Part shown: positions 34,959-55,905 of the stretch, one piece after another | Position numbering within the stretch: the stretch's first letter is position 1 | Layout: each line of letters begins with the position of its first letter | Assembly: GCA_945889325.1 (NCBI GenBank) | Contig: CAMDBH010000006.1 | Coordinates: 3,975-67,974 of the forward strand | Origin: Klebsiella pneumoniae | GTDB taxonomy: Bacteria > Myxococcota_A > UBA9042 | DNA length: 64,000 nt | Direction: 5' to 3' | Notes under the pieces: generated by a model | Told to the model about the DNA's origin: nothing | Database searches by the model: none | The model's input: only the letters and a program-made list of their open reading frames with translations | Translations under genes and position numbers: made by a program

Positions 34959-35021
34959 CGGCCATTTTATCGGCTTGGTCCGACGGCAACGGCAACTTGA
35001 AAATTTTGCTTGGGATTGCGT

Positions 35022-36488
35022 ATGGCTGTTGCGGCAAAATCAAAAGAGACAAATGAGCAACCGACCTTGCTCATCGTCGACGACGAACCGGCATTTGCGG
35101 AATTGCTGTCCGAACATTTAGCGCGCGCTGGCTTTTTGGTCCTGCGCGCCGTCGATGGCGAAGCGGCGTTGGGCCTTTTGCGCGAGCGCTCGGTCGACCT
35201 CATGTTGATCGACGTGCAGATGCCGCGCATGACCGGTTTGGAAGTCGTTGAAATTCTTGCACGCCAAAACAGACTGCCGCCAACTTTGGTGATGAGCGCT
35301 TTTGGCAGCCTCGAAAATGCCTTGCAAGCCATCCGCTTGGGCGCGATCGATTTTTTGTCCAAGCCATTTCGCCTGGCTGAAGCGGAATTGAAAGTTCGCT
35401 TGGCGCTGGAAAAAACCCGCGTCAAAGACAAACGACCAGCGGACAAAGGCGGCAACGCCAAGCAAACCCCGGAAGAAGCCGAAGCGCCGGACATCGGAAT
35501 CCGTAGTTATTTTGGTATGGTAGGTGGAACGGCGCCGATGTTGGCCCTGTTTCGGCAAATCGATCGGGTGGCGCGTTTTGGTTCGACGGTTTTGATAAGC
35601 GGCGAGTCGGGCACCGGCAAGGAATTGGTCGCCAAGGCGTTGCACCAGTCGTCGCCGCGGGCAAAGGGCCCTTTTGTGGCGGTCAATTGCGGAGCCATTC
35701 AACCAAACTTGCTTGAATCAGAACTATTTGGTCACGTCAAAGGCGCGTTTACCGATGCCCACACCGACCGCAAGGGTCTGTTTGAGGAGGCCAACGGCGG
35801 CACGCTGTTTTTGGACGAGATTGTCGATTTGCCCCTGCATTTGCAGGTCAAGTTGTTGCGGGTGCTGCAGGAGAACGAGATCCGCCGCGTCGGCGGCAAT
35901 AAAGCAATTGCGGTGGATATTCGCTTGGTTGCCGCCAGCGCCGTGCCAGCGCGACAGCGGGTGCGCGAAGGGCAATTTCGCGAGGACTTGTACTATCGCT
36001 TAAGTGTCATTGAGTTGCAGGTGCCTTCGCTGCGCGAACGGGCCGGCGATATCCCCGTGTTGGTCGAGCATTTTGTTGAAAAAGCCAACACGCGCCTAGG
36101 TACGCGAATTCGCGGCGTTAAGCCGCAGGCGATGGCGCGTTTGTGCGCCCACCATTGGCCGGGCAACGTGCGCGAGTTGCAGAACTGCATTGAACAAGCT
36201 TGCGTGATGAGCGAGGAGGATGAAATTACAGTTGAATCTTTGAATCTCGGCCGGCACGATCCGCTGCCGCGGCATGAACCGGTGACGATTCTGAGTGATT
36301 CATTAAGTATTCCGCTGACTATTGAGGCGACGGAGCGATCGCTGATTCATTCAGCGTTGCAGCGCACGGGGGGGAACCGCACGCACGCTTCAGAGCTGTT
36401 GGATATTTCGCCGCGGAATTTGCAGTATAAAATCAAGCAATATGGGATAGAAGTGGATGCGCCCTCCGGACGACCGCCTAGGCCTTAG
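35022..36488 (+). CDS. Sigma54-dependent response regulator (NtrC family enhancer-binding protein)
   Basis: Receiver IVDDE...IDVQMP, GESGTGKE, ESELFGH, GAFTDA, FLDEI, WPGNVRELQN, Fis-type HTH. Confidence 0.95.
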   Translation: MAVAAKSKETNEQPTLLIVDDEPAFAELLSEHLARAGFLVLRAVDGEAALGLLRERSVDLMLIDVQMPRMTGLEVVEILARQNRLPPTLVMSAFGSLENALQAIRLGAIDFLSKPFRLAEAELKVRLALEKTRVKDKRPADKGGNAKQTPEEAEAPDIGIRSYFGMVGGTAPMLALFRQIDRVARFGSTVLISGESGTGKELVAKALHQSSPRAKGPFVAVNCGAIQPNLLESELFGHVKGAFTDAHTDRKGLFEEANGGTLFLDEIVDLPLHLQVKLLRVLQENEIRRVGGNKAIAVDIRLVAASAVPARQRVREGQFREDLYYRLSVIELQVPSLRERAGDIPVLVEHFVEKANTRLGTRIRGVKPQAMARLCAHHWPGNVRELQNCIEQACVMSEEDEITVESLNLGRHDPLPRHEPVTILSDSLSIPLTIEATERSLIHSALQRTGGNRTHASELLDISPRNLQYKIKQYGIEVDAPSGRPPRP

Positions 36489-36866
36489 CCTCCCCGGCGG
36501 CTTTTAGCTGCGCATTGCTTTTGCCTCCGGCGGTTTTGCGCTGCGCGCGGCCCCGGCACGCTGAAGCGTGGACGAGCGGCACCTGCGGGTGCCGGTTGCG
36601 CGCTATCGCGCTGGATGCAAAGGGAGAAAACCAACGCTCTTTGATTCCGTGCTTAGCCGCTCAGGTTTTCTCCCTCTGCACTCCCTCTTTCCTTTTGGCA
36701 ACCGGTACGAGCTCGTTGCGCCCAAGGGCGCAACATCGCGCTGAATTCCCGCTTCGCGGCTGCAGGGGCGACGGGGCTGACGCCCGACGTCGCTGAAGGC
36801 GCCCACCCCCGTCATTCCCGCGGAGGCGGGCTTGCCAGACGTAGCCCGTGGCTTACAGCCACAGGG
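36489..36866. repeat. Dense mosaic of hairpins / REP-like elements (possible structured RNA)
   Basis: Stems at 36557-36570, 36577-36594, 36616-36632/36664-36680, 36715-36734, 36817-36830 and 36841-36866. Tandem GCCTCC(CC)GGCGG units at the left end. Confidence 0.7.
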
Positions 36867-36989
36867 TCCTAGCCGAAGGTCGATAACAAATCTACAGAAG
36901 ATCTACTAATAATCAGCGCTTATGTGCAAATGGCGTCGACGCACCGTTTTCTTGATCGCGGTTTCGCCCCAAACGGTCATGGCTTTGGT

Positions 36990-37017
36990 GCCATCCGCCA
37001 TCCGCCATCCGCCATCC
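36990..37017. repeat. Heptamer tandem repeat (GCCATCC)4
   Basis: Four exact units. Confidence 0.9.
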
Positions 37018-37235
37018 TATTGTAACAATTGCGAAAATTAATGTCAACAGCAAGTTTTTGATTCGCGTGCGGTGAACTATTTTCTGACGAGACCAGGCGC
37101 TTTCGGCCAATTTTGCTGGCCAAATACGGATGTTTGGACGAAGGTGTCTTTGGGGCAAGGTGCGCATCAGGCAATGGGCCGCGCAGAAAATTTTGGGCGT
37201 GGATTTGGGCTATCGATTAAAAACAAGGAGAAATT

Positions 37236-37625
37236 ATTAGATTTATTGTAATTTGTGAAAATGTGCCGTTTGATTTTTTCAGCGGCGCGACGATTCGCTT
37301 GGCGACAGGTGTCGATGTGCCCAATTGCAAAACTGTTTCCGTGCTTGTGCGTTATCACACCGGCGCTAAATTTGTTGGAACTGGTTCGTCGCTCACCGTT
37401 GACGTGCGGGCGGCGTGGCCGTTTTCGCGCGACGCTGCGATTTACGAATTTGCCACGGCGCTTTCGAGCGCTGCGGTTCTTGCTGCGAGTACAGCGCCTT
37501 CGGTGATTCCGGGCGTGGTCGGTAGTTGCACGGCACCTGCGGTGGATGTCGTGCTCACCGCTGTTAAGGGCGCAGGCGATTGTGGCGCAAATATCAGCGT
37601 CGGGCTAATGTTGTCGGAATATTAG
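37236..37625 (+). CDS. Small beta-rich hypothetical protein; probable ATT start (else GTG at 37263)
   Basis: AAGGAG at 37225-37230, then an in-frame ATT at 37236 giving MRFIVICENVPFDFFSG. No upstream in-frame ATG before the TAA at 37218. Confidence 0.55.
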   Translation: MRFIVICENVPFDFFSGATIRLATGVDVPNCKTVSVLVRYHTGAKFVGTGSSLTVDVRAAWPFSRDAAIYEFATALSSAAVLAASTAPSVIPGVVGSCTAPAVDVVLTAVKGAGDCGANISVGLMLSEY

Positions 37626-37864
37626 TTCGAGTTTCAATGGCATGGCACGACAGCTGGCCAAACGGGGGTTGCTGTATTCGGCCCCATCCGGTGCCTGACC
37701 GCCTGCGCGAAAAATATCGCACGGTTGCGCGTCGTTTGCGTTAAACTATCCGACGGTGGGCTGAACGGTCCTCGGAGGCGTCGTCGAAGTTGTCGCCTGC
37801 GGGGGGTCACACCGCAACGCGCTGCGCTCCTGTGTTGCAGTGCGTGATTCAACGGAGGTAATCG

Positions 37865-39232
37865 ATGAAGGACGACCCCAAACCCTACAACCCGGCCACA
37901 GAACAGCATTGGGACGATATTAAGGATATACGTCCCAACTCTTACGAAAGAGCGGTGCCAAAATACGGTGAGTCGGATTTGGGCCTCAGCCTGCAATACA
38001 TCAAGTTCGTTCATGATGATCCAACGACAAGTGCCTTGTATATGGGTGGAAAAACAACTGGAATTTGGAAAGCCGGCAAATCGTCCGATTTGCCCTTGCC
38101 CGTTCTTTATCCAATTGACCCACACGGAACACCCGACGACAAATCGGGATTCACAGTGATTCTAGGCTTTGCTGCCGACCAAGCTGGGACATACACCGTG
38201 TGGGCAGATGGCGGTGGGCGGTTGGGAGCCGTCAAGCCCTTCAGCGTGGTTTTCGACAGCGCTGGTATGCAGGAAGTCGCCGTATCTTTAAACCACGCTT
38301 TCTTCAAAGTCTGCATTTCGAGCGCCGTGTGGATATGGTCCGCCAAGAGCGCGATCGGCGGCGGCGGATACAACAAGATTCAAGAGAAAACCAATCCCGG
38401 AAAGTGTTTGAATGTTCTGTATATTCAGCTGTATTTGACTTTTGGCGCGCCGTACATACCTAATTCCGTTGATGTTGGCCCAATTCTCGATGTCGCGATT
38501 CCGCCGCTGCTTGCGATCTCGGCGCAGAATCCGGTCACAGCGCTCACTGCGCTCTGTCAGGCGATCTTCCCCTCGGCGCCCGGTGAAATTGGATTGTTCA
38601 AAGCCCAGTACCAAGCGGGCGCATCGAAATTCGCGGAGTGGCCGAAACCATTGAATGCTAAAATGAATGGAAGCCCCTACGAGGGAAACCCTTTGGTGAT
38701 AAAATTGACCTTATTACTCGCCCACATCAACGGCGATTGGAAAGTCAACGGCTTGGCGCAATGTGACTCCGCGTCATTCAACGGCGGATTTGCTATAATG
38801 GCACGCGCCCTCGGTTTGCCAATGAACGTGGCCTTTGTGCCGGAATTTATAGCCTGGCCGGTTCGCACTAACGGTTATGTCGGCTTCCTCAGTTCGGTGC
38901 CGAATAAGTACCAGAGCGTAACGAGCGACTTTATTTATGTGACGAGTTGGCAAGATGCAATATCACGCTACGAAAAGACTGGGCACTTTATTTGCACCTC
39001 GTCGCTTGCGGACAAAAATGGGTTTATCCCTCAGACCGCGCTTCTGTATGATGTAACATTTGCCGTCAACGGGTTGCCAAAGCTGGGGGCGGGATTTCAA
39101 CCGCCGGATCCCGCGAAGTTTCAGCCGCTTTTTGTCTTCGGCATTGAGCGCGGACTGTGCTTTTTCCGTATCGTGGAGGCAGTTAATTTAGGCGGGTACC
39201 TTTCCGGCATATTTGAACTCAAGTTGGTCTAG
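37865..39232 (+). CDS. Hypothetical protein with putative transglutaminase/papain-like Cys-His-Asp triad
   Basis: GGAGGT RBS. QC300DSASFNGGFAIMARALGLP, GH374FI and LYD396V have the order and context of a transglutaminase-like core. Confidence 0.55.
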   Translation: MKDDPKPYNPATEQHWDDIKDIRPNSYERAVPKYGESDLGLSLQYIKFVHDDPTTSALYMGGKTTGIWKAGKSSDLPLPVLYPIDPHGTPDDKSGFTVILGFAADQAGTYTVWADGGGRLGAVKPFSVVFDSAGMQEVAVSLNHAFFKVCISSAVWIWSAKSAIGGGGYNKIQEKTNPGKCLNVLYIQLYLTFGAPYIPNSVDVGPILDVAIPPLLAISAQNPVTALTALCQAIFPSAPGEIGLFKAQYQAGASKFAEWPKPLNAKMNGSPYEGNPLVIKLTLLLAHINGDWKVNGLAQCDSASFNGGFAIMARALGLPMNVAFVPEFIAWPVRTNGYVGFLSSVPNKYQSVTSDFIYVTSWQDAISRYEKTGHFICTSSLADKNGFIPQTALLYDVTFAVNGLPKLGAGFQPPDPAKFQPLFVFGIERGLCFFRIVEAVNLGGYLSGIFELKLV

Positions 39233-39240
39233 CGGTCGAA

Positions 39241-39792
39241 ATGGCTAATAGGTTTGCTACATTCACGCTTTTGGCTTTGGGATCCTGCCACGGCGCTGTC
39301 TCTAGCGTCGCGCCGACGGCGGACACCGCGCCGGAATCGGAGTACATGAAGTTGTTCAAGAGTTGCTCCGGTTGCGCTGGCTCCGGCGCTTGCCATTACA
39401 TCGAGACCGATTTTGGCTCCTATTGCGTCGCCTTTTTTGACTCGGACTGTCGTCAATCGAGCCTATGCCGTTGGGACGGCCGCTGTTGGCTTCGCGATTC
39501 TCAATGTGTTGCGCGGTTTGACTCTGACTGCCAACCTTCGGTGAGCTGCGAACAGAGCGGTCACTGCCATTTTGACGGCGCATTTGCTTGCAACGCCGCG
39601 GGCGCTGATTGCGCCGCGCCGACTGCGCTTTGCGTTTTGGGCGGCCTATGCACGGCCGTCGACGGCGTGTGCATTGCGACCTCCGCGACAGATTGCCAGC
39701 TTGCGACGTCATGCGGTGGCTCCAAGACGTTGGCACCGTGTAACGGCCTATGCTGCGAAGCCGGTTGTAAGAATTGCTGCACGATCTTCTGA
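39241..39792 (+). CDS. Cys-rich repeat lipoprotein
   Basis: MANRFATFTLLALGSC lipobox; about four CxAxxDxDCxxSxxCxxxGxC repeats. Confidence 0.75.
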   Translation: MANRFATFTLLALGSCHGAVSSVAPTADTAPESEYMKLFKSCSGCAGSGACHYIETDFGSYCVAFFDSDCRQSSLCRWDGRCWLRDSQCVARFDSDCQPSVSCEQSGHCHFDGAFACNAAGADCAAPTALCVLGGLCTAVDGVCIATSATDCQLATSCGGSKTLAPCNGLCCEAGCKNCCTIF

Positions 39793-39825
39793 ACTTGGAA
39801 AATGTGGGCGACAGAATGCTCGCGC

Positions 39826-39961
39826 CAAGCGCTCAAAACGTACCCAACCACCGAACGCAAATCCGTAGGCAGCAAGCCCGCTTGCCGGGCGACGCCGTCG
39901 CGCCAGGATTTGGGACACTTGTACAACACAATGATATCACGCCCGAAACCACTGAATACCA
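39826..39961 (-). pseudogene. Internally deleted remnant of a GSU2403-like nucleotidyltransferase gene
   Basis: 39826-39927 aligns ungapped to 40786-40887 at 77/102 nt (hand count), with a 23-bp identical core. It encodes LYKCPKSWRDGVARQAGLLPTDLR versus LCKWPKSWRDGVARQIRLLPADLR. Confidence 0.8.
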
Positions 39962-39995
39962 AGTTATACGCAGGTAACCAAAACTGCGTATAACT
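39962..39995. promoter_or_regulatory. 34-bp palindromic site, copy 1
   Basis: AGTTATACGCAG-GTAACCAAAA-CTGCGTATAACT, with perfect 12-bp arms. Confidence 0.75.
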
Positions 39996-40131
39996 CCCAC
40001 GCAAATACACGCTGCCACCCACACCCGCGCCCCGCGTGAGGCAAAGCCTTGACTTTCCGCCAAATCCGCGGCAGTTTAGCGCACAATCCGGCGAAAATCG
40101 GCCTTGATGCGCAGCGAAAAGCCAGCAAACC

Positions 40132-40716
40132 ATGACCAACCTCGAAACCGGCTATGAACTCGACCGACGGTGGCATTGGCTGCGCGGAGAAACCATGCAA
40201 GATGGGGCGGATGCTTCAAAACAGCTTGCGTTAGAGGCGCTTGCGGCGGTGCTCGGCGCCAGCGGTGTGCCGTACGCGATTATTGGCGGTGTGGCTTTGC
40301 AAGTGCATGTGTTGGAGCCGAGAACGACGTTGGACATCGATGTGGCGGTGGCTGATCGGCGCTTTTTGCCCGTCGCCGCGATGCAACAGGCGGGGTTTTC
40401 CCGCACTGGCCTATTTGAGCACACTGAAAATTGGCAAGGCCCAGGCGCTGTCCCGGTGCAATTTACGGATGATCCTGCATTTGCCGCAGCACTGATGCGC
40501 ACAGTCGAAGTCTCTAGCGGTTCCAGTCAGTTGCGCGTGCTTTGTGTGGAGGACTTGCTGCTTGCGAAATTGCGCGCAGGACGCGATCCCGCGCGGCGCC
40601 AGTCCAAGCGCATGCAAGATCTGACGGACGTGCAGACACTGATTGAAATCCATGCAGATTTGGCCGAACTGCTCTCAGCAGAAGATCGGGCTTTGCTCGC
40701 GCGCTTCTTCGGTTAG
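40132..40716 (+). CDS. Nucleotidyltransferase-fold protein (DUF6036/AbiEii/MenT-like)
   Basis: YAIIGGVAL...RTTLDIDV catalytic motif and C-terminal LLAKL...K..QDL. Alternative start 40195. Confidence 0.75.
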   Translation: MTNLETGYELDRRWHWLRGETMQDGADASKQLALEALAAVLGASGVPYAIIGGVALQVHVLEPRTTLDIDVAVADRRFLPVAAMQQAGFSRTGLFEHTENWQGPGAVPVQFTDDPAFAAALMRTVEVSSGSSQLRVLCVEDLLLAKLRAGRDPARRQSKRMQDLTDVQTLIEIHADLAELLSAEDRALLARFFG

Positions 40717-40784
40717 GTGTGCGGCGCGCAAAGGTGGCTGCACGATTTTGCAACTGCTTCGGATGTCATCGTGCCGCCGTCCAA

Positions 40785-41786
40785 CTAAGCCCGCAAAACA
40801 TCCTCTACTTCACCACGCAAATCGGCAGGAAGCAAGCGGATTTGTCGAGCGACGCCGTCGCGCCAGGATTTAGGCCATTTGCACAACGCGCGCCAAGCGG
40901 TCGCTAGATCGTTTGGACTCTCTTGGACCAAAACTGCAAGCAGACTCGACGCTTGCGCGAAATCCTTGGCACGCTTGTCCGGGTCTATGCGCCGCGGCAA
41001 GATCAGCAGCTTGTGCAATGCGTAACGCGCCGGTTGCGGCACGCGCATGAGCACGCCGGTGCCCAAAGGAAGCGCTGTCAAAGCGGAGTCTTGCAACAAA
41101 TAATCCAAGAAGCGCAGCGGTTCGCCGTGCGTGCGCAACGCCGGAACGACGATCGGCAGTTGGTTGGGCCGACCGATCAACGGAGTCAGCACGTCGACTC
41201 GCTGGCGCTGACCGGGCAAAACGAACATCACCGGTGGGCGCGCTGAATCCAAAAAGCGCGCAGGCTCAAAGCCAAGACGGGTATCGGCAAGGACTTGCTG
41301 CAAATCAATCTGTTGATCAGCCGGTTGTGCTGTTGCGGCCAAGTCGATGTCGTCTGTGGCCGCGTAATTTGGCCAGCGCAATGCGAACATGCCCTGGTAG
41401 GCCACAAATGCGTAAGTTCCGACAAGTACGGCGCCTGTTGCGTGGATGCGCGCTTCGCCCAGCGCCGTCAATACCCGCGCCATGGGGCCCTGCAAAGCGG
41501 GCCCATAGACGGGACGCAAGACGTCGCACAGAGTGCTGCGGGCGTTGCGCGCGGCCATTTCAGCCAATAGATGTTGGACCGCTGGCTCGCTATCGGGTCC
41601 GAGATAGGTCTGGCGATTTTGGCCATCGACATGCAGTTGCCAGTACCAGTACACCTTGCCTTTCAAGGTTTTGCGGACGAGCGTTGCCCGCGCGGGGGCT
41701 GCGATTTCGCTGGACGCCTCGGCTGACAATTGGGCCAATAATTCGCTATAAGCACCCTGAAGTGCGTTGGGCAGCCGGTAGCGCAT
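40785..41786 (-). CDS. GSU2403-family (NTP_transf_8-like) nucleotidyltransferase-fold protein with N-terminal three-stranded beta domain
   Basis: VLVGTYAF...ATDDID, VDVLTP, LRFLDYLL, VPQPARYALHKL and KRAKDFAQA. N-terminal RKTLKGKVYWYWQ...QTYLGP. Confidence 0.75.
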   Translation of the reverse strand: MRYRLPNALQGAYSELLAQLSAEASSEIAAPARATLVRKTLKGKVYWYWQLHVDGQNRQTYLGPDSEPAVQHLLAEMAARNARSTLCDVLRPVYGPALQGPMARVLTALGEARIHATGAVLVGTYAFVAYQGMFALRWPNYAATDDIDLAATAQPADQQIDLQQVLADTRLGFEPARFLDSARPPVMFVLPGQRQRVDVLTPLIGRPNQLPIVVPALRTHGEPLRFLDYLLQDSALTALPLGTGVLMRVPQPARYALHKLLILPRRIDPDKRAKDFAQASSLLAVLVQESPNDLATAWRALCKWPKSWRDGVARQIRLLPADLRGEVEDVLRA

Positions 41787-41791
41787 CAGGT

Positions 41792-41825
41792 GGTTATACG
41801 CAGTTGACATGATGTGCGTATAACT
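41792..41825. promoter_or_regulatory. 34-bp palindromic site, copy 2; overlaps a putative leaderless -10 box
   Basis: GGTTATACGCAG-TTGACATGAT-GTGCGTATAACT. Minus-strand TATAAC lies 6 nt before ATG 41786. Confidence 0.75.
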
Positions 41826-41965
41826 CAATTTGGCGAACAAGGCAAGTGTTCAGGTGCGACGACGCGGCGAAAGTGCATTGAAACCTTGACTTTCGAGCCA
41901 GACTGGCGCAATTTCGCCCGCCTCAACACCCCGCCTCGCCGCGCTAAAATTCACCGGAGCCAACC

Positions 41966-43402
41966 ATCCTTTCCCAACGTCTATCTGCCCGTTATCCCTT
42001 GCTTTTGTTGCTGCACAGCGATGAACGCGATGCCGTTGCGCGGGTGCAACAGGCGGCAAGCGAATTGCAACTAGACGTGCAACTGTTGAACTACGCGACG
42101 CAATCGCCAATCGAATTGGCGGTTGCTGCGTTACAGGGCCTGACCGAGCAAGCGAAGCGTCAGGTGTTGATTTTGCCGCTCGGCGATATTTTGCTGCGCA
42201 ATCAAGGGATTGTGCGGTTTCTGGTTGAAAAACTGGTGGATTTGGAGCGCATCGGTCATTCGGTCGTATTGCTCAGCGTTGTGCCGGTACAGTGTGTTGA
42301 ACTTGCCCGGGATTTGGCGGTGCTGCATCTGCCGCTGCCCGGCGTCGCGGAATTGCAACCGCTGGTCAATGCGGCCTTTTCGGGTAGCGCGCTTGACGTG
42401 CACGCGGGCGTGCAGGCGTTGCGCGGGCTCACGCAAGGGCAGGCGCGACGGGCCCTGCGGCGGATTCGTCAACAAGGTTTGCAACCTACGGCGATTGACG
42501 AGTTGCAGGGCGAGAAGCGCGATCTGATTGCGCAAGGCGGCGTGCTCGATTTGGTGGAAAACTTGGGCGATGCGACACAAGTTGGCGGATTGGATGCGGT
42601 TAAGGAGTGGCTGCACCGTCGCCGCCGCGCACTGCAACAGCCCGCGCGCGATTACGGCCTGCCGATGCCGCGCGGGGTGTTGGTTTTGGGCGTGCAAGGC
42701 TGCGGTAAGTCGCTGATTGTCAAAGCTTCTGCTCAGATTTTGGGTCTACCTCTTGTGCGGTTGGACATCGGGCGCCTGTACGCGGCCGATCGCGCGCCCG
42801 ATGAGCTGTTGCGCCAAGCCCTTGCCGTCGCTGAAGCGATGGCGCCTGTGGTGCTTTGGCTCGATGAAATTGACAAGGCTTTTTCAACCGCGGCGACGAC
42901 GCCATCTGAAGAAGGGGCTCGTATTTTTGGCAGTTTTCTGACTTGGTTGGGGGAACAGCGCGCCGGTGTGTTTGTGGCGGCGACGGCCAACCGCGTCGAA
43001 CATTTGCCGCCGGAATTGGTGCGCAAAGGCCGTTTTGACGAGATGTTTTTTGTCGATTTGCCCGATTCCGCGGTGCGTTCTGAGATTTTGGCGATCCAAC
43101 TGCGCCGATCGGGTCGAAATCCAGCGATATATGATTTGCAACAGCTTGCAAACAAAGCCGATCGTTTGACCGGTGCCGAGATTGAACAAGCCGTGACCGA
43201 AAGTTTGGCCAACGCTTTTTCGCAAGATCGCGAGATGACCACAGCGGATATCGCCGCAGCGCTGGCCAAAACCGTGCCCTTTGTGGAAACATACGAGCCG
43301 CAGGTGCAGGCGCTGCGCCAATGGGCGCGGCACCGCTGCAAACCGGCAACGCACGACCGAAGTCTGCGGGAACTTTATCTTTCAGCGCTTGATGAGCGCT
43401 AA
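41966..43402 (+). CDS. Ycf46-like AAA+ ATPase; probable ATC start (else TTG at 41999)
   Basis: VGGLDAVKEWL, GVQGCGKS, LWLDEIDK, ATANRVEHLPPELVRKGRFDE. Upstream in-frame RLSARYPL matches the family N-terminus. Confidence 0.8.
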   Translation: MLSQRLSARYPLLLLLHSDERDAVARVQQAASELQLDVQLLNYATQSPIELAVAALQGLTEQAKRQVLILPLGDILLRNQGIVRFLVEKLVDLERIGHSVVLLSVVPVQCVELARDLAVLHLPLPGVAELQPLVNAAFSGSALDVHAGVQALRGLTQGQARRALRRIRQQGLQPTAIDELQGEKRDLIAQGGVLDLVENLGDATQVGGLDAVKEWLHRRRRALQQPARDYGLPMPRGVLVLGVQGCGKSLIVKASAQILGLPLVRLDIGRLYAADRAPDELLRQALAVAEAMAPVVLWLDEIDKAFSTAATTPSEEGARIFGSFLTWLGEQRAGVFVAATANRVEHLPPELVRKGRFDEMFFVDLPDSAVRSEILAIQLRRSGRNPAIYDLQQLANKADRLTGAEIEQAVTESLANAFSQDREMTTADIAAALAKTVPFVETYEPQVQALRQWARHRCKPATHDRSLRELYLSALDER

Positions 43403-46863: not shown

Positions 46864-46885
46864 GTTCTTCGATACGTCTTCTGTC

Positions 46886-46925
46886 AAGCCTTGGTATTTA
46901 GCGATGCCAGGGCTTTGGCATTTTT
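46886..46925 (+). terminator. Intrinsic terminator after rplS
   Basis: 12-bp stem AAGCCTTGGTAT/ATGCCAGGGCTT, followed closely by TTTTT. Confidence 0.6.
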
Positions 46926-46942
46926 GCGCTGGCGCTCGCGGT

Positions 46943-47015
46943 TGAACATATATTCACTTTCTGAACTTTCGTTCAAAATATGACTTGACAGTTCAGCGAA
47001 ATGAACTATCGTTCA
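46943..47015 (+). promoter_or_regulatory. Three TGAAC-N4-GTTCA operators overlapping the tetR promoter
   Basis: 46943-46956 (1 mismatch), 46962-46975 and 47002-47015; TTGACA at 46985-46990. Confidence 0.75.
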
Positions 47016-47019
47016 CTTC

Positions 47020-47688
47020 ATGCATGCAGAAGTCAAAAAGCCCTCGACACCGACGCTCTTGCGCGACCGTCTGCGTGAACAGACGCAAGGCCTGATCCTT
47101 GAAGCTGCGCAGCAACTTCTGGGCGAGGAAGGCCTCGCCAACACGCGCATCGACGCGATAGCGGCGCGCGCTGGCGTGTCCGTGGGCACATTGTACAACC
47201 ATTTCAAGGACCGCGACGCGATTTTGGCCGCGGTGCTTGAGCACAACCTGCAAACGCTGCTGCGCAGTCTTGACGCCGTGCTGGCCAATCCAAATCCCGA
47301 TTACTCCTTGGCATTGCGCCAATTTGTCAACGCATTTAGCGATCACTGGCAGCAAAATGGTGAAGTCGTGCACTTGCTGATGACGGGCCAACCGGACACG
47401 ACCAATCTGGTGTGCAACCGCCAAGGGGTGATTCGCGAAATCCGCTGGCGCGGAGCGCGGTTGATCAAACTCGGTGTGGATGCGGGCGTGTTGCGCTCGG
47501 AACATCCCAGCCTGTTTGGCGACTTCCTATTGGCTTTGATGCGCCAGCGTTGGATGCAACGGATGCTGTTGCCCGATGAGGCGCTGCCAGATGTTCATCA
47601 CATGATTGATTTTTTTCTCCACGGCGCCGGCCTTAGGCATCCTGCCGCAGCGTCGGAAAGCGCATTTCCAGAGGCGTCAGATGTCTAG
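47020..47688 (+). CDS. TetR/AcrR family regulator
   Basis: HTH ILEAAQQLLGEEG...IAARAGVSVGTLYNHFKDR. Confidence 0.92.
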   Translation: MHAEVKKPSTPTLLRDRLREQTQGLILEAAQQLLGEEGLANTRIDAIAARAGVSVGTLYNHFKDRDAILAAVLEHNLQTLLRSLDAVLANPNPDYSLALRQFVNAFSDHWQQNGEVVHLLMTGQPDTTNLVCNRQGVIREIRWRGARLIKLGVDAGVLRSEHPSLFGDFLLALMRQRWMQRMLLPDEALPDVHHMIDFFLHGAGLRHPAAASESAFPEASDV

Positions 47689-49045
47689 ATCTGCCTATTT
47701 TGTAGGTTTTCTCGTCGGATTGGCGCCGTGCGCCGCTGCGCTGGCCCAAGAAGTTGAACAACCTGCGGCTGAAGTGCTGACGCTTGACGCCGCAATCGAG
47801 CAAGCGCTGCAATACAATTCCGATGTGCAAATAGCGGGTTTACGCCTTGGCGAAGTCAAAGCGGTGCGCGACAAAGTGACCACGGCCTATTTGCCCAACA
47901 TCGTGGCGGCGGCGACGTACACGCACAATTCGGCGGAAGCTGTTTTCGATATGGGCAAAATTATTCAAGGTATCGGCAAAAATATCGGTGTGCCGATTGC
48001 GCCTGAAAGTTTGCCGCCGCCGTCCTACATCCAGCGCTTTGACACGCTGGGCGCAGTTTTGACCTTGGATCAGCCGGTGTTCGCGATGTCGCCGATCTTG
48101 CTCATGCGCGCTGCTGACCGTCAGATCGACGCCCAAACGGCGGCACAGGAAGCAACCAGACGGGAAATCATCTATCAAGTCAAGCAAGTGTACTACACGT
48201 TGGCTGGCACCGAGCGCCTGATTCAAAGCGCGCAACGGGCTCTTTCACTGGCAGATCAACGCATAGCCAACGCGTTGCGCCGTCAGGCCAGCGGCGCCGA
48301 GGGCGAACTCACGGTGCTGCGGGCGCAAACGGAACGCGACAAGGCCGAACAGGATCTGATTCGCACGCAAAATGTCCGGCAACAGCTCCTAGCGGCGATC
48401 GGCACGCTTTTGGGCGCCGATCCACCAACCGCGGTCAGTCCGCCGCCGGCGCTGGAACTGCCCGCGGGCGATGCACAAGCGTGGGTCCAAAGTTCAATGC
48501 GTCAGCGTCCCGACTTGGAAGCCCGGCGGCAAGCGGTGGCGGCCGCGCAAGTCGCGCTGGAGGAAGCGCAACTGCGCTGGTTGCCGATCCTGAGCATTGG
48601 CGGACGCTTGAATTATACCGACACTGCCGGTTTTGCTGGAAAAAATTGGCTTTGGGCCGTAACCGCCAATTTGGCAGTGCCGTTGTTTGATCGCGGTCTG
48701 CGTTACGCCGATGCCCGCGAGCGGCGGCAGACCCAAGCGCGCCTCAACGCGGAACTGAGCAAAGCACAAACGGAATTGAAAACGGCCCTGCGCCAGACGG
48801 AACTCGATCTGCGCACTGCTGAAAAAACGCTGGCGATCGCGCTGGCGCAAGCACAAAAGGCCAAACGCATGGCCGAAATTGTCGGCAAAGCGCAGGTGGC
48901 CGGCGCGGCCACATCTTTGGAAGTAGCCGAAGCCGATACAGGCCTGCGCGTTGCCGAATCCGCCGCCGAGCGCGAACGCATCAATTTGCAATTGGCGATG
49001 TTGAAGTTGCAGCACCTTACGGGTGCAGTCACCGCATCTAAATAG
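47681..49045 (+). CDS. TolC-family outer-membrane efflux protein
   Basis: Signal peptide; LTLDAAIEQAL, AYLPNI, RPDL, PLFDRG; two-repeat architecture. Confidence 0.88.
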   Translation: MSRSAYFVGFLVGLAPCAAALAQEVEQPAAEVLTLDAAIEQALQYNSDVQIAGLRLGEVKAVRDKVTTAYLPNIVAAATYTHNSAEAVFDMGKIIQGIGKNIGVPIAPESLPPPSYIQRFDTLGAVLTLDQPVFAMSPILLMRAADRQIDAQTAAQEATRREIIYQVKQVYYTLAGTERLIQSAQRALSLADQRIANALRRQASGAEGELTVLRAQTERDKAEQDLIRTQNVRQQLLAAIGTLLGADPPTAVSPPPALELPAGDAQAWVQSSMRQRPDLEARRQAVAAAQVALEEAQLRWLPILSIGGRLNYTDTAGFAGKNWLWAVTANLAVPLFDRGLRYADARERRQTQARLNAELSKAQTELKTALRQTELDLRTAEKTLAIALAQAQKAKRMAEIVGKAQVAGAATSLEVAEADTGLRVAESAAERERINLQLAMLKLQHLTGAVTASK

Positions 49046-50356
49046 ATGAAAGCCATGGAGAATTTGATGTATTTCCCAGTGAAAGCCCACCAAAATCTGG
49101 CTTTGCTCGTGCTATTCGCCTGCGCGCTAAGCGCTTGCAACAAGGCGGATGCCACCGCGCCCGGTGGGGGCGCCGACGCTGCCGCAGCGCCGGCCGCACC
49201 TTCGACGCCCGCCGTCGAAAAGCCAGAAGTCGTTCATGTGATTAAAATCAAAACCGAAAAATTGCCGCCGACGCTAGACCTGACCGGTACATTGGCGGCT
49301 GATGAATCGAGCGACGTCGCGGCGCCTGCGCCGGGCTTGCTCACAGAAGTGCTGATCGACGTCGGCTCGCGGGTCAAAAAGGGCGACGTCTTGGCCAAAG
49401 TCGATCGCCGCGATGCGCAAATGCGCGAACTGCAAGCGACAGCGGCCACCGCGCAGGCAGGCGCGCGCTTGGGCATCAAGCCGGGCGATGCCTTCAACCC
49501 GCAAAAAGTGCCCGAGGTCCTTGTCGCCAAGCAAGCGTTGGAACTAGCTGAAACTGAAGCAAAACGTGCCAAGGCTCTGGTCGAAGGCGGCTCAGCGGCA
49601 GCCTCGCTTTGGGATCAGGCGCGCATCCGCGGCGAACAAGCGCGCGGACAATACGACGCGGCTGTCAACGGCGCGCGTCAGCAATACGCCGCGCTGCAAA
49701 TGGCGCGGGCGGCTCAGGATTTGACGGAAAAAGCCAGCAATGACACCGAAATTCGCGCGCCTTTTGACGGCGTGGTCATTGAAAAGCGCGTGTCGCCCGG
49801 CGAATATGCCCAAGCGGGGCGGGTCATCGCTGTCGTGATTCGCGACACGACCTTGCGCCTCAAAGTCGACGTGCCGGAAGCCGACGCGGCAAAAGTGAAG
49901 ATCGACGCACAAGTGCTTGTTACTGTTGCCGCTTGGCCTGGTCGGGTTTTTTCCGGCGCCATCAAACGCATCGGCGCATCGCTGAAAATGCAGTCGCGCG
50001 CGCTGCCGGTTGAAGCGGAATTCGCCAATCCAGACGGCGAACTCAAACCGGGATTTTTCGCCCATGCCTCTATCGTTGTTGAAGGCGCTGGCTTAGATGC
50101 AATGTTGGTGCCCGCCACGGCCATCGGCAACAGCGGCAGCGCCTCGCGCGTGTTCGCCATCACAGGCGATCGCATCGCCGAGCGCATCGTCACCGTCGGT
50201 CGCAGTTGGCAGGGTTTGGTTGAAATCCATGGAAATATCAAGGTAAATGATGAGATCGCCAACGACAACCTGACCAAGCTCCTCGACGGTGCTGCGGTGG
50301 TCGTGCAGCGATCCGAACCGATCGCCGCAGCCATTGAGTCGACATCAACCCATTGA
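49046..50356 (+). CDS. RND periplasmic adaptor (membrane fusion protein), lipoprotein
   Basis: Lipobox LSAC, GSRVKKGDVLA, EIRAPFDGVV, LKPGFFA. Confidence 0.9.
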   Translation: MKAMENLMYFPVKAHQNLALLVLFACALSACNKADATAPGGGADAAAAPAAPSTPAVEKPEVVHVIKIKTEKLPPTLDLTGTLAADESSDVAAPAPGLLTEVLIDVGSRVKKGDVLAKVDRRDAQMRELQATAATAQAGARLGIKPGDAFNPQKVPEVLVAKQALELAETEAKRAKALVEGGSAAASLWDQARIRGEQARGQYDAAVNGARQQYAALQMARAAQDLTEKASNDTEIRAPFDGVVIEKRVSPGEYAQAGRVIAVVIRDTTLRLKVDVPEADAAKVKIDAQVLVTVAAWPGRVFSGAIKRIGASLKMQSRALPVEAEFANPDGELKPGFFAHASIVVEGAGLDAMLVPATAIGNSGSASRVFAITGDRIAERIVTVGRSWQGLVEIHGNIKVNDEIANDNLTKLLDGAAVVVQRSEPIAAAIESTSTH

Positions 50357-50375
50357 TCTCGTTTAGGAAAGCCTT

Positions 50376-53300
50376 ATGCAATGGTTAGCGGAAATTTGCG
50401 TTCGCCGTCCGGTTTTCGCCAGCGTTTTGATGATGATGCTGACCGTGGTCGGCATTTTTGCCTATGCCAAACTAGGTGTTGATCGCTTTCCCAAAATCGA
50501 TTTTCCGGTCGTCACCGTGATGACCCTGCTACCCGGCTCCGCACCCGAGGAAGTCGAGTCCGAAATCACCGACAAGATCGAGGCAGCCGTCAATACAGTC
50601 AGTGGTATTGATGAGTTGCGTTCAGCATCGGCCGAAGGTGTCAGCCAAGTGATTGTGACTTTTGTGTTGGAAAAAGACGTCGACGTCGCGGCGCAGGAAG
50701 TGCGCGATCGCGTGGCCGCCGTGATGCGCGATCTGCCGCAAGGTGTTGATCCGCCAGTAGTTACCAAAATGGATCCGGATGCCGCACCCATTTTGGCGCT
50801 GGCGATTTCAGGCGATGCAAGTCCGCGCGAATTGACAGAATTTGCCGACAAAACCCTGCGCCGCGAGTTGGAATCGCTCAGCGGTGTCGGCCAGGTCACT
50901 TTGGTCGGCGGCCGACCGCGCCAAGTCAACGTCTGGATAGATCCGGATAAGCTCATTAAATTCGGGCTTACGGCCGCCGAAGTCGAAAGGGCGCTGCGCT
51001 CGCAGAACATCGAACTGCCATCGGGGCGGGTGGAGCAGGGGGCGCGGCAGCTGACGCTGCGCACGCAAGGACGCGTTGAAAGTGTAGCGCAATTTAACGA
51101 ATTGTTCGTCGGTACCCGCGACGGCAAGCAGATCATGGTGCGCGATGTGGCACGGGTGGAAGACGGCACAGCGGAACCGGAATCCGTCGGCTTCAAGGGC
51201 GGCAAATCCGCAATTTTGCTGAACATTCGCAAACAGTCGGGCACCAACACGGTCGAGATCGTCCACAACGTCAAACAGCGCTTGGCCGACTTGGAAAAAC
51301 GCCTGCCCAAAAGCTACCAGATCGACATTGCGCGCGATCAATCTGAATTTATTGAAAATGCCATCGCCACCGTCAAAGAGCATTTGATCTTGGGCGCTCT
51401 GTGCGCGGCACTTATCGTCCTGCTTTTCCTCGGCAATTGGCGTTCGACGATCATCGCCGCCGTCGCGATTCCCGTTTCGATCATTTCGACGTTTGGCGTC
51501 ATGAAATGGGCCGGATTTTCCCTCAATGCAATCACGCTGTTGGCGTTAACTTTGGCCGTGGGCATCGTCATCGACGACGCCATCGTCGTTTTGGAAATCA
51601 TCTGGCGCAAAATCGATGAAGAAAACATGAAGCCGTTTGACGCCGCCATCCACGGCACCGCGGAGATTGGCTTAGCCGTTCTGGCGACTACGTTTTCACT
51701 GATCGCCGTGTTCATGCCGGTGGCTTTTATGGGCGGAATCGTGGGCCGCTTCATGAATTCGTTCGGCCTGACCATGTCGTTTTCTATTGTCGTATCCCTA
51801 CTTGTGTCGTTCGTGCTCACACCGATGCTGTGCGCGCGCTGGTTGCGCAAGAAGATCGCCAAGCGCAGCGACGGCACCGCGCTGCCACAGCCGCAGGGTC
51901 ACGGCGCAGCCAGCAAGGGGCTTTACGGTCTGGTTGAGGGCGCTTACATGATCATGCTCGGTTGGTCACTGCGCCACCGATGGGTTGTCGTGCTGGCTTG
52001 TGTCGGCGCGCTGGCGTCGATTCCAGCGCTCGGCAAACGCGCCAACGCCAATTTCTTGCCCGACGAGGACGAATCGCAATTTGCGGTAACAATTCGCGCG
52101 GCTGAAGGCACAAGCCTGGATGAAATGCGCATCATCGCCACGCGCTTTGCCAAAGCCGTTGAAGGCCAGGTCGGCGTGCGCTATGCGGTGACGACGATTG
52201 GCGACGACCCGCAAAAAATGCCCAATCTAGCGAGTTTGTACGTTAAATTGCTGCCGCCGGACAAGCGCAAGCTGTCGCAGCTTGAAATGATCGAGGCCAC
52301 GCGCAAGACGGTCATTCCGCAATTCGCGGGGCAAAATCTGCGGATCGCGGTCAGTCTGGTCCAGCCATTTTCCAGTGGCCAAGCAAATTTTCCGGTGATG
52401 TTTCAGATCATTGGCCCCGACATGACTCGAATCGCTGAATACACCGACAAATTGCTGCAAAAACTGCGGACGTTGCCCGGCGTGGTCGACCCCGACACGT
52501 CGCTTATCGTGGGCAAACCGGAAATGCGCGTTCACATCGATCGCGCCAAGACCGCGGAACTCGGCGTCAATGTCGCCGATGTGTCAGCTGCGCTGCGTCT
52601 GCTGGTCGGCGGCTATGAAGTCACGACCTACAACGAACACGGCGAACAATACGAGGTCCACGCCCGCGCCGAAGCCGGCAACCGCGCGGATGTGCAAAGC
52701 TTACGCCGCCTCACGGTGCCTTCGATGAAACTAGGCAGCGTGACTTTGGACAACATCGTGACGTTTAGCGAAGGCCGCGGCCCGACGAAAATCGACCGCT
52801 ACAACCGGCGTCGCCAAGCCATGGTGATGTGCAACATGCAAAAAGGCTTTTCAGAAGGCGCAACTGTGGCTTCGCTCAACGACGCGGTCAAAGAACTCAA
52901 GCTCGATCCCGCCTACAGCGCGGCCGCAACGGGCCGTTCGCGCGAGTTGGGGCGTGCGGCGCAGAACTTTTTCCTCGCCTTTGCGATGTCATTTATTTTC
53001 ATGTATTTGGTGTTAGCCGCGCAGTTTGAATCGTGGCTACATCCGATCACCATTTTGCTGTCTCTGCCACTGACCGTGCCATTTGCGATCTTGAGCGTCA
53101 TTATTTTCAAGCAATCGCTCAATATTTTCTCGATGTTGGGGATTTTGGTGCTGTTTGGCGTGGTCAAGAAGAATTCGATCTTGCAAATCGACCACACGAT
53201 CAAGCTGCGCGCCACAGGTCTGCCGCGTTTTGAAGCCATGATGCAAGCGAACAAAGACCGTTTGCGGCCGATCCTAATGACAACGCTGGCCTTTGTCGCA

Positions 53301-53534
53301 GGCATGATTCCGCTGGTCGTGTCGAGCGGCGCCGGCGCCGGTACCAACCGGGCCACGGGTTATGTCATTATCGGTGGCCAGACGTTTAGCCTTTTGCTCA
53401 CGCTGCTGGCAACGCCGGTGGCTTACAGTCTATTTGACGATATGTCGATGTTCTTCCAGAGGCTTCTGAGCGGCAAGCTGCGCCGCGCGCCGACCCTTGT
53501 TGCGCCCATCCTGTCGCAGAAGCGCACGGAGTGA
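50376..53534 (+). CDS. RND efflux permease (AcrB/AcrD/AcrF family)
   Basis: RRPVFA start; TM4 IVIDDAIVV (proton-relay DD), [15 protein letters not shown]; 1052 aa. Confidence 0.95.
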
Positions 53535-53559
53535 ACGTTTTTTCGCTTGACGAGGCGCC

Positions 53560-54657
53560 TTGTCCATCTCTGAATTCACACGGTTTGTCGCCATTGCGCT
53601 TCTGCTTGCGGCCTGCGGCGAGCAAAGCGTGTTGACCATTGGCGCAAGCCAAAGCCAAACCGAGGGTCGTTCGGACGCCGTCGCGCCGGACTCGGGCCCC
53701 GCGGACGTCTGGAGCGATGCCGCCGAAATACCGGAAGATACAACGCAAACCTGGGCCATTGCAGTCGACCGCGACGACAACCACGCGTGTGCAGTGACCC
53801 GCGATCACCGCGTGGCCTGTTGGGGCGACAACACCGGCGGTCAGTTGGGCGACGGTACCCAGAATTGGCGCGGCACGGCCCAATTTGTGGCCAATGTCTT
53901 CAATATTTCACGGGTTGTCGTCGACAAGCTCGCCAGTTGTGCCATCGCGGTCGACGGCAACGTGACGTGCTGGGGCAGCATCGCCTGGAAATTCGGCAAA
54001 GGCCAACAAGCGGCGTGGGAACCGCGCCTTATGCCAGAACTCGGCAAACTCAAAGCGCTTTCGTTCGGCGCAGTCGATGTCAGCTTGGTGCGTCTGGATG
54101 GCGAGACGCTGTGCTGGGAGCCGCAAAAAGCCATGGTTGAAGCGCAAGGTATCGCAGACGGGGTCGACACGGCGCTGGGCTGCAGCGGTTGCGTCCTGCG
54201 GGCCAATGGCACGCTTGTTTGCGGGGATTTCATTAACAAAAACACACATGTGATTGCCGGCATTTTCACCGCGTTGCGCGCAGACAAGGGCAAGGCGTTC
54301 GTGTTGCGTCAGGACGGCCACGTCTTGGCGACCAGTCCGCTCAGCGTCGCGGTCGTCGATGAAGTCTTTACCGGTAAAGCCATAGCCATTTCAACCGACT
54401 GTTTCCTCGATGCCGCGGGCCAAGTGTACTGTGCGGATCATTTGCCAAGCGGTGCGGCAAAAAATCCGGCTTTGGGCTTGGGTGATGTGGCCTTTGTGCC
54501 GCAACTAACAGGAACACTAAATGTATTCCGCGGACCTTGCGCCAATGGTCCGGATGGCCTGCTGCGCTGTTGGGGCAACAATAGCAATGGTTCGATCGGC
54601 AATGGCCTAAAGCACCAGGAATTTATTGCCGATCCTGCATTAGTTGTGCAGCCATAG
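53560..54657 (+). CDS. RCC1-repeat lipoprotein
   Basis: Lipobox LAAC; HACAVTRDHRVACWGDNTGGQLGDG and CWGNNSNGSIGNG. Confidence 0.8.
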   Translation: MSISEFTRFVAIALLLAACGEQSVLTIGASQSQTEGRSDAVAPDSGPADVWSDAAEIPEDTTQTWAIAVDRDDNHACAVTRDHRVACWGDNTGGQLGDGTQNWRGTAQFVANVFNISRVVVDKLASCAIAVDGNVTCWGSIAWKFGKGQQAAWEPRLMPELGKLKALSFGAVDVSLVRLDGETLCWEPQKAMVEAQGIADGVDTALGCSGCVLRANGTLVCGDFINKNTHVIAGIFTALRADKGKAFVLRQDGHVLATSPLSVAVVDEVFTGKAIAISTDCFLDAAGQVYCADHLPSGAAKNPALGLGDVAFVPQLTGTLNVFRGPCANGPDGLLRCWGNNSNGSIGNGLKHQEFIADPALVVQP

Positions 54658-54749
54658 CGCAAGCAGTCGGGGCGACCACGCTGGACTTTAGCCCCCTTTT
54701 CTGACACCTTCGCCAGACTTTGCAGCGCCCGCCGCTACCGGAGACTTAA

Positions 54750-55700
54750 ATGCAGGTCATGACTTCAAACTCGGCCGCTGAGCCGATGCAGTGGCGCGAA
54801 ATCGCCGACCGGCCGCTGCGCAGCGATGAAATTCGCGTCACTGTCAAGGCGGTTGGCGTAAACCCCGTCGATTGGAAAATGCGCCAAGGCGACATGCTCG
54901 GCATGGCCCAGAAGTTGATTGGGCCGCCGGGATCGCTGGTGTGTGGCATTGATTTTGCCGGTGAAATCACAGAGATCGGCGGCGGAGTGACCGACTTAAA
55001 AGTCGGCGATCGTGTGGTTGGCGGCACCGATTTTTCGCGCAAGCAATACGGCAGTTACGCCAAGACCGTCCAGGTCCGCGCCGATCAAGTGGCTGTTTTA
55101 CCAGCTGAAGTGACCTACGAGGACGCAGCCTGTCTGCCAGTCGCGGCAAGCACGGCGCAAACATCGCTGTATGATTTGGGTCACTTGCCGGTCGGCGGCC
55201 GCGCGCTGATTTTGGGCGCCTCGGGCGGCGTAGGTCATTTTGCCGCGCAATTGGCAGCTTACCGCGGTGCCACTTCCGTCGGCGTGTGCTCAACGCGCAA
55301 TGTTGCGTTTGTTGAAGGACTTGGCGCCATTGCGCTCGACTACGCGCCGGGTGACGTACCCGCACGCGCGTTGGCGCTCGGGCCTTACGACGTGGTCGTC
55401 GACGCCGTCGGCAGCGCGAGTTATCCGATCGCCATGTGCCAGAAGTTGCTGAAAAGAGGGGGTAAGCACATTATGGTCATGCCCAAAGCCGTGGATTATT
55501 TCAGCGTTTTGATGCCGGGGCCGACTCTGACGGTGTTGGGACGGGCCAACCGCGCTACGTTGACGCCGCTGGTGGCGGATGTGGCCGCAGGCAAGCTCAA
55601 AGTTACGATACATCAGCGGTTTTCAATGGACCAGGCCAATGAAGCCCATGAAATGTCGCGCGGCGGCAAGGTCGTCGGCAAGCTGGTTTTGGTCAACTAG
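54750..55700 (+). CDS. NAD(P)-dependent MDR/quinone oxidoreductase-like protein
   Basis: VGVNPVDWK, GIDFAGEI, ILGASGGVGHFA, GKLVL. Confidence 0.88.
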   Translation: MQVMTSNSAAEPMQWREIADRPLRSDEIRVTVKAVGVNPVDWKMRQGDMLGMAQKLIGPPGSLVCGIDFAGEITEIGGGVTDLKVGDRVVGGTDFSRKQYGSYAKTVQVRADQVAVLPAEVTYEDAACLPVAASTAQTSLYDLGHLPVGGRALILGASGGVGHFAAQLAAYRGATSVGVCSTRNVAFVEGLGAIALDYAPGDVPARALALGPYDVVVDAVGSASYPIAMCQKLLKRGGKHIMVMPKAVDYFSVLMPGPTLTVLGRANRATLTPLVADVAAGKLKVTIHQRFSMDQANEAHEMSRGGKVVGKLVLVN

Positions 55701-55857
55701 GTGGCTGTCGGAAAACCTTCCGACAGCCACCGTCGCAACGTCTTTTTTGTCCTGCGGCGTGCAAACACCAGAAGTGAATTCCGATATTTGCACGCCGCAG
55801 GCAGCCCGCATCCGCGGTCTGCCTAGGAGCTTGTCGGAGTTTTCCGACAAGCTCCTA
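55700..55857. repeat. Pair of related perfect palindromes (REP-like) between convergent genes
   Basis: GGTGGCTGTCGGAA-AACC-TTCCGACAGCCACC (55700-55731) and TAGGAGCTTGTCGGA-GTTT-TCCGACAAGCTCCTA (55824-55857). Confidence 0.75.
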
Positions 55858-55905
55858 ACAAAGCGCAGATTCTTTCTGCCCATTGAATTTGTTCAGATAT
55901 TGCGT

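Follow-up and report, generated by a model that had tools for sequence, protein, structure and literature searches.

The AbiE type IV toxin-antitoxin and abortive infection system consists of the antitoxin AbiEi and the DUF1814 nucleotidyltransferase (NTase) toxin AbiEii, and its DNA-binding partner represses the promoter of the NTase gene through an inverted-repeat operator (PMC3985639, PMC7319586). NTase toxins are also represented by MenT/MenA and TglT/TakA of Mycobacterium tuberculosis (PMC7450476, PMC10435456, PMC11375011; PDB: 6j7r, 8an4). Here we describe a locus in a 64,000-nt stretch of contig CAMDBH010000006.1 (the window), in which an intact NTase gene of the GSU2403 family (Pfam PF12281) is accompanied by the remnant of a second copy. 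The remnant is probably a decayed paralogue of a self-regulated GSU2403 NTase, the operator and divergent promoter of which have been conserved within an unstable accessory island.

A repeat search of the window identified a direct repeat of 101 nt, located at 39827–39927 and 40787–40887, with an identity of 76% ungapped and 78% gapped. A second repeat of 34 nt, at 39963–39996 and 41793–41826, contains two palindromes (39963–39994 and 41793–41824). The arms of the palindromes, GTTATACGCA and TGCGTATAAC, are identical, and their spacers agree at 5 of 12 positions. The motif CCTTGACTTTC-N14-GCA(G/A)TTT was found at 40047–40077 and 41884–41914. The repeated gene end, palindrome, and promoter motif were thus all recovered in direct orientation, as claimed in a preliminary description of this DNA. 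The homology of the two copies extends about 50–70 nt beyond the stop codon (~39754–39826 versus ~40718–40784), and the duplicated 3' flank overlaps the final codons of a Cys-rich open reading frame (ORF) at 39241–39792. In the flank alignments, the end of this ORF reads CKNCCTIF-stop in the window and CKDCCTIF-stop in the related contig L024.

Copy 2 carries the full GSU2403-like gene noticed previously, which encodes 333 aa. The protein encoded at 40785–41786 matches PF12281 with a score of 136.6 bits (cut-off 26.3, E 1.5e-39), in agreement with a whole-genome search, which detected only this one PF12281 gene in the 3.47-Mb assembly. Copy 1 lacks the middle of the gene, and the reported loss of about 900 bp could be specified: the gene body of about 905 nt (40888–41792) has been swapped for 35 unrelated nt (39928–39962). 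The stub unit, 39827–39994, is composed of 101 nt of the gene 3' end, these 35 nt, and the 32-bp palindrome. The translation of the stub is 69% identical to residues 301–332 of the full protein, which are its sole remainder. Since neither the NTase domain nor the start and stop codons remain, the stub fails as a member of the family. The earlier statement that the frame is preserved is literally true, as one minus-strand ORF (39561–40139) spans both parts of the stub; however, it carries no functional weight, because the start and stop codons have been lost and chance would preserve the frame in one of three cases. Judging from its sequence, copy 1 is the dead stub of a decayed paralogue, a product of ordinary gene decay, and it is the retained, conserved control site that is notable.

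Comparison with related contigs distinguishes three states of the locus. In the window, the end of the Cys-rich ORF is followed by the stub with palindrome 1 and the promoter-like block P1, an intact gene for a 194-aa NTase, the intact full GSU2403 unit with palindrome 2 and block P2, and an AAA ATPase gene. L024, which is one Logan contig and shares about 80% identity with the window, retains the full unit with palindrome 2 and P2, in which the GSU2403 gene is split by a frameshift, and the AAA gene. The last ~60 nt of its NTase gene are joined to a truncated homologue of a gene encoding a 455-aa protein, and therefore the Cys-rich ORF, the stub with palindrome 1 and P1, and most of the NTase gene are missing. 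Contigs L149 and L158, which originate from two JGI samples and share about 85% identity with the window, contain the end of the Cys-rich ORF, the stub with palindrome 1 and P1, and the NTase gene, which is frameshifted in the contig. The AAA gene is positioned directly after the NTase gene in these contigs, and the segment corresponding to window 40730–41947, with the full GSU2403 unit, is missing. Their stub is shorter than that of the window and comprises ~65 nt of the 3' end and 5 filler nt, and its palindrome spacer is orthologous to that of palindrome 1. The internal breakpoints of the two stubs differ. Therefore, either the stub predates the divergence of these lineages or it arose twice, and its erosion is still under way.

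The 10 + 10 arm positions are identical (20/20) in all six pairs of window copy 1, window copy 2, L149, and L024, and the sequence CTTGACTTTC of the promoter block is identical (10/10) across the same four instances. In contrast, the 51–62 nt between the arms and the promoter block are 47–58% identical, orthologous pairs included, compared to 45–49% for shuffled sequences. Both the window and L149 stubs lack the −35 element and ATG of the dead gene, yet the arms have been retained. The stub is 64% identical between the window and L149, and the probability of 20 positions remaining unchanged at this identity is about 1e-4. Because the arms and the promoter block are invariant, the DNA between them resembles shuffled sequence, and the −35 and ATG have been lost, the orphan palindrome and the rightward promoter appear to be under purifying selection. 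The invariant sites with randomised flanks and the orthologous, more eroded stub of L149 and L158 favour the proposal, one of the two offered in the preliminary description, that copy 1 is a decayed tandem duplicate with a retained cis site.

The palindrome is linked to the gene family well beyond this locus. The pattern GTTATACGCA-N8-16-GCGTATAAC occurs twice in the window and in none of 100 shuffles, and the same palindrome was found only twice in the assembly (84% complete), even when three mismatches were allowed. Relatives and metagenome contigs likewise have palindromes of ~32 bp immediately before their GSU2403 homologues. The palindrome arms are the same as those of the window in L005, L024, L025, and L028, and other subfamilies have their own arms in the same geometry (TTACCCTCTA...TAGAGGGTAA and GTATCCGTCA...TGACGGATAC). 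A scan for GTTATACG-N10-18-CGTATAAC in 185,579 species genomes, one genome per species, detected at least 120 loci. Among the matches listed, a PF12281 gene adjoins 31 of 44 palindromes with a length of 34 bp, 6 of 11 with a length of 33 bp, 11 of 22 with a length of 30 bp, and 0 of 46 of all other lengths. The gene-linked form is GTTATACG-N14-18-CGTATAAC and ends 2–31 nt before codon 1, or farther in a few loci. It is present in Acidobacteriota, Myxococcota, Alpha- and Gammaproteobacteria, Coriobacteriia, Elusimicrobiota, and Planctomycetota, so that the search of other genomes proposed in the preliminary description found the palindrome beside PF12281 genes across phyla. The other end-only miniatures that it proposed to look for were not encountered: no second one is present in the loci fetched, whereas gene-less palindromes and one decayed copy do exist. 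No C-terminal stubs were found beside the gene-less palindromes of L059, L071, L075, and L086.

The 34-bp palindromes have a sigma-70-type promoter built into them. In the 32 sites of this class, TTGA directly abuts the left arm, and TAnnnT occupies positions 20–25 of the sense strand in 20 of the 32 sites, compared to 6 of 32 for the mirrored place. The resulting layout consists of a −35 element, a 17-nt spacer, and a −10 element inside the palindrome, and most of the palindrome is therefore untranscribed. Such a layout is classic for the operator of an auto-repressor and speaks against an RNA hairpin. The register differs in the clade of the window: TATACG forms part of the left arm, with the −35 (TTGCCT in the window, TTGACT in L024) 17 nt before it and an ATG 6 nt after it, within the palindrome spacer. 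The position of the ATG suggests a leaderless transcript, and the GSU2403 gene of the window may start at this codon (41810–41808) within palindrome 2, which would extend the protein to 341 aa. The palindrome most likely acts as an auto-repression operator of the GSU2403 gene. In the outward blocks, CTTGACTTTC-N14-GCAnnTT is invariant in the four instances from window copies 1 and 2, L149, and L024. A sigma-54 reading of the GCAnnTT block was rejected: in the window, the distance between GG and GC is wrong by one position, and L024 lacks the GC.

Some palindromes were observed away from a family gene or in tandem. A gene-less 34-bp promoter-operator is located at L086:4704–4737 in one Myxococcales metagenome-assembled genome (MAG); the same MAG has two PF12281 genes elsewhere, one of which (L159:1124–2187) is accompanied by a palindrome of 32 bp ending at the ATG of the gene. 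Perfect long palindromes with GTTATACGCA arms occur at L155:1456–1505, where the arms extend to about 21 nt, L156:6089–6120, and L157:616–647, on metagenome contigs with no PF12281 gene. Two tandem palindromes accompany homologues with the 30-bp class at L047:134–218 and L114:4205–4289, 55 bp from start to start, and at L145:1008–1082, where this distance is 45 bp.

Among 48 homologues of the GSU2403 protein, Gly123 and Asp146 are invariant and Asp148 is nearly invariant, and the window protein contains all three residues of the catalytic G...DxD motif. The AlphaFold2 model calculated from the 48 homologues has a predicted local distance difference test (pLDDT) score of 94, and its best match in the PDB is the AbiEii-type toxin TglT/Rv1045, with a Foldseek E-value of 1.8e-5 and a template modelling (TM) score of 0.32–0.38. 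Residues 1–110 were modelled as a helix, a three-stranded sheet, and a long helix, with a pLDDT of 85 for the domain alone. XLF heads and integrase arm-binding domains gave weak matches to this N-terminal fold and were not trusted. A sequence search of the PDB with the family profile provided no match, nor did searches of NCBIfam, PADLOC, and PF08843 with the GSU2403 protein. In a literature search, GSU2403 was named once, in a single paper, and PF12281, NTP_transf_8, and DUF6788 were not named.

The NTase gene at 40132–40716, which had been recognised as a second NTase between the copies, encodes a short AbiEii-like protein of 194 aa that matches PF08843 (E 3.7e-9) and, weakly, AbiEii entries of PADLOC. 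It belongs to a widespread family of solo NTases of ~190 aa with 871 homologues, the close ones of which are typically 54–60% identical. The neighbours of this family vary, with no conserved one in other genomes, and none of 69 loci is linked to a GSU2403 gene. The 194-aa NTase and the GSU2403 family share a C-terminal motif (hhalign E 7e-5), and the profile of the former has a weak match (E 0.04) to 8an4, the chain of an AbiEii-family toxin with a length of 196 aa. In a Coriobacteriia MAG (L124:1–989), the contig end truncates a GSU2403 gene; opposite this gene and its palindrome is a divergent pair composed of a 71-aa ORF and a small NTase of 189 aa. This NTase belongs to another family and is a second case of a short NTase behind a putative GSU2403 operator.

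We propose that the accessory island once held two paralogous stand-alone GSU2403/PF12281 NTase genes, in each of which a palindrome of 32 bp covered the promoter and start codon of the gene and an outward promoter (TTGACT-17-cAnnTT) followed ~55 bp further on. The body of copy 1 would then have lost ~900 bp, and the surviving palindrome and outward promoter would now serve as the control region of the 194-aa NTase. The GSU2403 protein, predicted to be an AbiEii/MenT-like NTase with an extra N-terminal domain of a helix, a three-strand sheet, and a long helix, would bind the palindrome as a dimer and repress its own promoter. The protein from copy 2 could also occupy the orphan palindrome 1, and through this site it may control the second NTase. 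The persistence of the site without the gene body argues that it may be read in trans.

Several observations weigh against this proposal. The fold search of the N-terminal domain against the PDB gave no significant match (best E 0.05), and thus no known DNA-binding fold in support of an operator. A distance of about 70–78 bp separates the centre of palindrome 1 from the −35 of P1 downstream of it. A repressor does not act from such a position, and simple occlusion of P1 is therefore unlikely. The outward −10 is weak, and a consensus promoter scan calls neither P1 nor P2; instead, it calls TCAACA-16-TAAAAT at 41923–41950. Nine genomes with gene-less GTTATACGCA palindromes were compared; a PF12281 match is absent from seven of them and only sub-threshold in an eighth, and such sites can therefore outlive the gene. 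Contigs L149 and L158 conserve the palindrome of the stub and contain no full gene. The last two observations would also be expected if the stub, including its palindrome, were non-functional debris, the conservation of which results from limited time or chance. The decaying gene of L078, which still bears its palindrome, and the continuing erosion of the stub, by about 55 nt more in L149 than in the window, are consistent with such a neutral relic. However, debris would not readily account for arms that are unchanged in all six pairs next to non-coding DNA resembling shuffled sequence, or, with the stub 64–78% identical, for the low probability of 20 unchanged positions given above. Therefore, we consider a neutral relic unlikely. 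An extended version of the proposed mechanism is more doubtful still: GSU2403 would be a one-chain, self-repressing MenT-like NTase with an N-terminal domain of a new, sequence-specific DNA-reading fold, and in this lineage it would, through the co-opted operator of the dead paralogue, also govern the second, partner-less MenT-like NTase, so that one NTase would regulate another in an antitoxin-like role.

The palindrome could alternatively function as a nucleic-acid hairpin, in RNA or as a cruciform, and serve as a terminator, insulator, or translational element instead of a protein operator. The inner stem contains some compensatory change, with pair 9–26 being C-G in 20 sites and T-A in 9, the arms reach 14 nt in some loci, spacer length ranges from 10 to 14, and the perfect palindromes of L155–L157 have the same arms and no gene. 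The clade of the window also has an ATG within the spacer. Nevertheless, the outer 8–10 nt of the arms keep their sequence, and not just their pairing, across phyla in which the proteins are 35–55% identical. The sense-strand −35 and −10 of the main class place most of the palindrome upstream of the transcript, there is no T-run after the palindrome, and an Rfam search gave no match. Together, these properties make a hairpin improbable.

It is hardly credible that the GSU2403 unit is mobile as a cassette, with copy 1 being a non-autonomous derivative resembling a miniature inverted-repeat transposable element that retains only the mobilisation ends, the other proposal of the preliminary description: the family is patchy, cross-phylum, and without conserved neighbours, and the window and L149 differ by the presence or absence of exactly one unit (40730–41947), but the genome holds only two palindromes and one stub, the palindrome is on one side of the unit instead of at both ends, neither terminal inverted repeats nor target-site duplications are present at the unit borders (40730/41947 or 39754/40118), the NTase is the only protein encoded, with no transposase or integrase, and the two stubs have different internal breakpoints. 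The unit-precise indel was rejected as a sign of mobility, because its ends are pinned, one just after the NTase stop codon and the other at the island/core junction, by genes that need to stay intact, and an ordinary deletion would look equally precise.

In Myxococcales with AAA orthologues 60% identical to that of the window, a sigma-54 activator gene directly precedes AAA-gpsA-rimM-trmD, and the activator and AAA genes abut or overlap; across Myxococcales, the AAA orthologues are 55–62% identical and the synteny is conserved. Contig L162 and the window are colinear until window position 36482, and their colinearity resumes at 41969. This synteny and colinearity identify 36489–41947 as a 5.5-kb accessory island (Table 1), the GC content of which is not distinct. 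The right end of the island must supply the promoter of the downstream core operon. Duplication and deletion are ordinary turnover in an accessory island.

Table 1. Features of the accessory island and its borders in the window.
Feature	Position	Strand	Remarks
Accessory island between two core genes	36489–41947		Flanked by sigma-54 activator gene (35010–36488) and AAA-gpsA-rimM-trmD operon
Cys-rich lipoprotein-like ORF	39241–39792	+	Last ~12 codons within duplicated 3' flank
Copy 1, duplicated 3' flank of GSU2403 gene	39754–39826		Aligns with 40718–40784 and with flanks in L024 and L149
Copy 1 stub, apparent pseudogene, last ~34 codons of GSU2403-family gene	39827–39927	−	76–78% nt identity to 40787–40887
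Filler without homology	39928–39962		35 nt, replacing ~905 nt of gene body
Palindrome 1 (orphan putative operator)	39963–39994		GTTATACGCAG-N10-CTGCGTATAAC; arms 20/20 versus palindrome 2, L149, and L024
Promoter-like block P1	40048–40077	+	TTGACT 40049–40054, 17 nt, CAGTTT 40072–40077; 55 nt upstream of NTase start
Short AbiEii/MenT-like NTase, 194 aa	40132–40716	+	PF08843, E 3.7e-9
Copy 2, intact GSU2403/PF12281 NTase gene, 333 aa	40785–41786	−	PF12281, E 1.5e-39
Palindrome 2, putative operator over promoter and start of GSU2403 gene	41793–41824		Repeat and pattern search
Putative GSU2403 promoter	41817–41845	−	−35 TTGCCT 41845–41840, 17 nt, −10 TATACG 41822–41817, 6 nt, ATG 41810–41808
Promoter-like block P2, upstream of AAA ATPase operon	41885–41914	+	TTGACT 41886–41891, 17 nt, CAATTT 41909–41914
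AAA ATPase, core gene of the lineage, first gene past the island	41999–43402	+	Pfam AAA

Other parts of the region also vary. The pair of genes for the 455-aa protein and the Cys-rich lipoprotein (window 37865–39792, L024:1879–3001) is variable: in L024:1879–3001, a frameshift interrupts the 455-aa homologue, which is joined to the final 19 codons of the NTase gene, and there is no lipoprotein gene. The sequences AGCAAACCAT and AGCCAACCAT, considered as a trace of a second NTase copy, were judged to be a chance similarity because of their low local alignment score. Upstream of the TTG start of the AAA gene, the frame is open in window 41948–41998, back to a TAA at 41945–41947, and encodes ...ILSQRLSARYP. 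L024, L149, and L162 share this conserved segment, and most of the changes in it are synonymous. ATG, GTG, and TTG are absent from the segment; the window, L024, and L149 have a conserved ATC in the same frame (41966). The original AAA start codon may have been removed by the insertion of the island. A second insertion of ~9 kb relative to the syntenic Myxococcales contig L162 is located at window 46883–55918, between rplS and the UPF0102/RNase HII genes.

The large, cross-phylum PF12281 family has seen no experimental work, and its conserved palindrome offers a direct handle for the bench, consisting of a defined 32–34-bp site and a candidate DNA-binding domain of ~110 aa. The locus of the window is a natural experiment, in which the gene body has been lost and the site has remained unchanged in two lineages. 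The GSU2403 protein resembles the AbiE system in its predicted AbiEii-like NTase fold and in the inverted repeat in the promoter of its gene. Unlike AbiE, it lacks a separate AbiEi gene and a winged helix-turn-helix domain, the extra domain is fused at its N-terminus and matches no solved fold, and no conserved partner gene was found beside its homologues in other genomes. Of the mycobacterial toxins, TglT is the best structural match of the GSU2403 model, and the toxin chain 8an4 is weakly similar to the 194-aa NTase. These matches are weak, with the low TM scores given above and sequence E-values near the threshold, and neither NTase of the window has an AbiEi or MenA antitoxin ORF beside it. 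Within PF12281 (NTP_transf_8), named 'GSU2403 family nucleotidyltransferase fold protein' by NCBI, copy 2 is a clear member and has the upstream palindrome of the family, whereas the combination of a stub and an orphan putative operator is a state seen only in this lineage.

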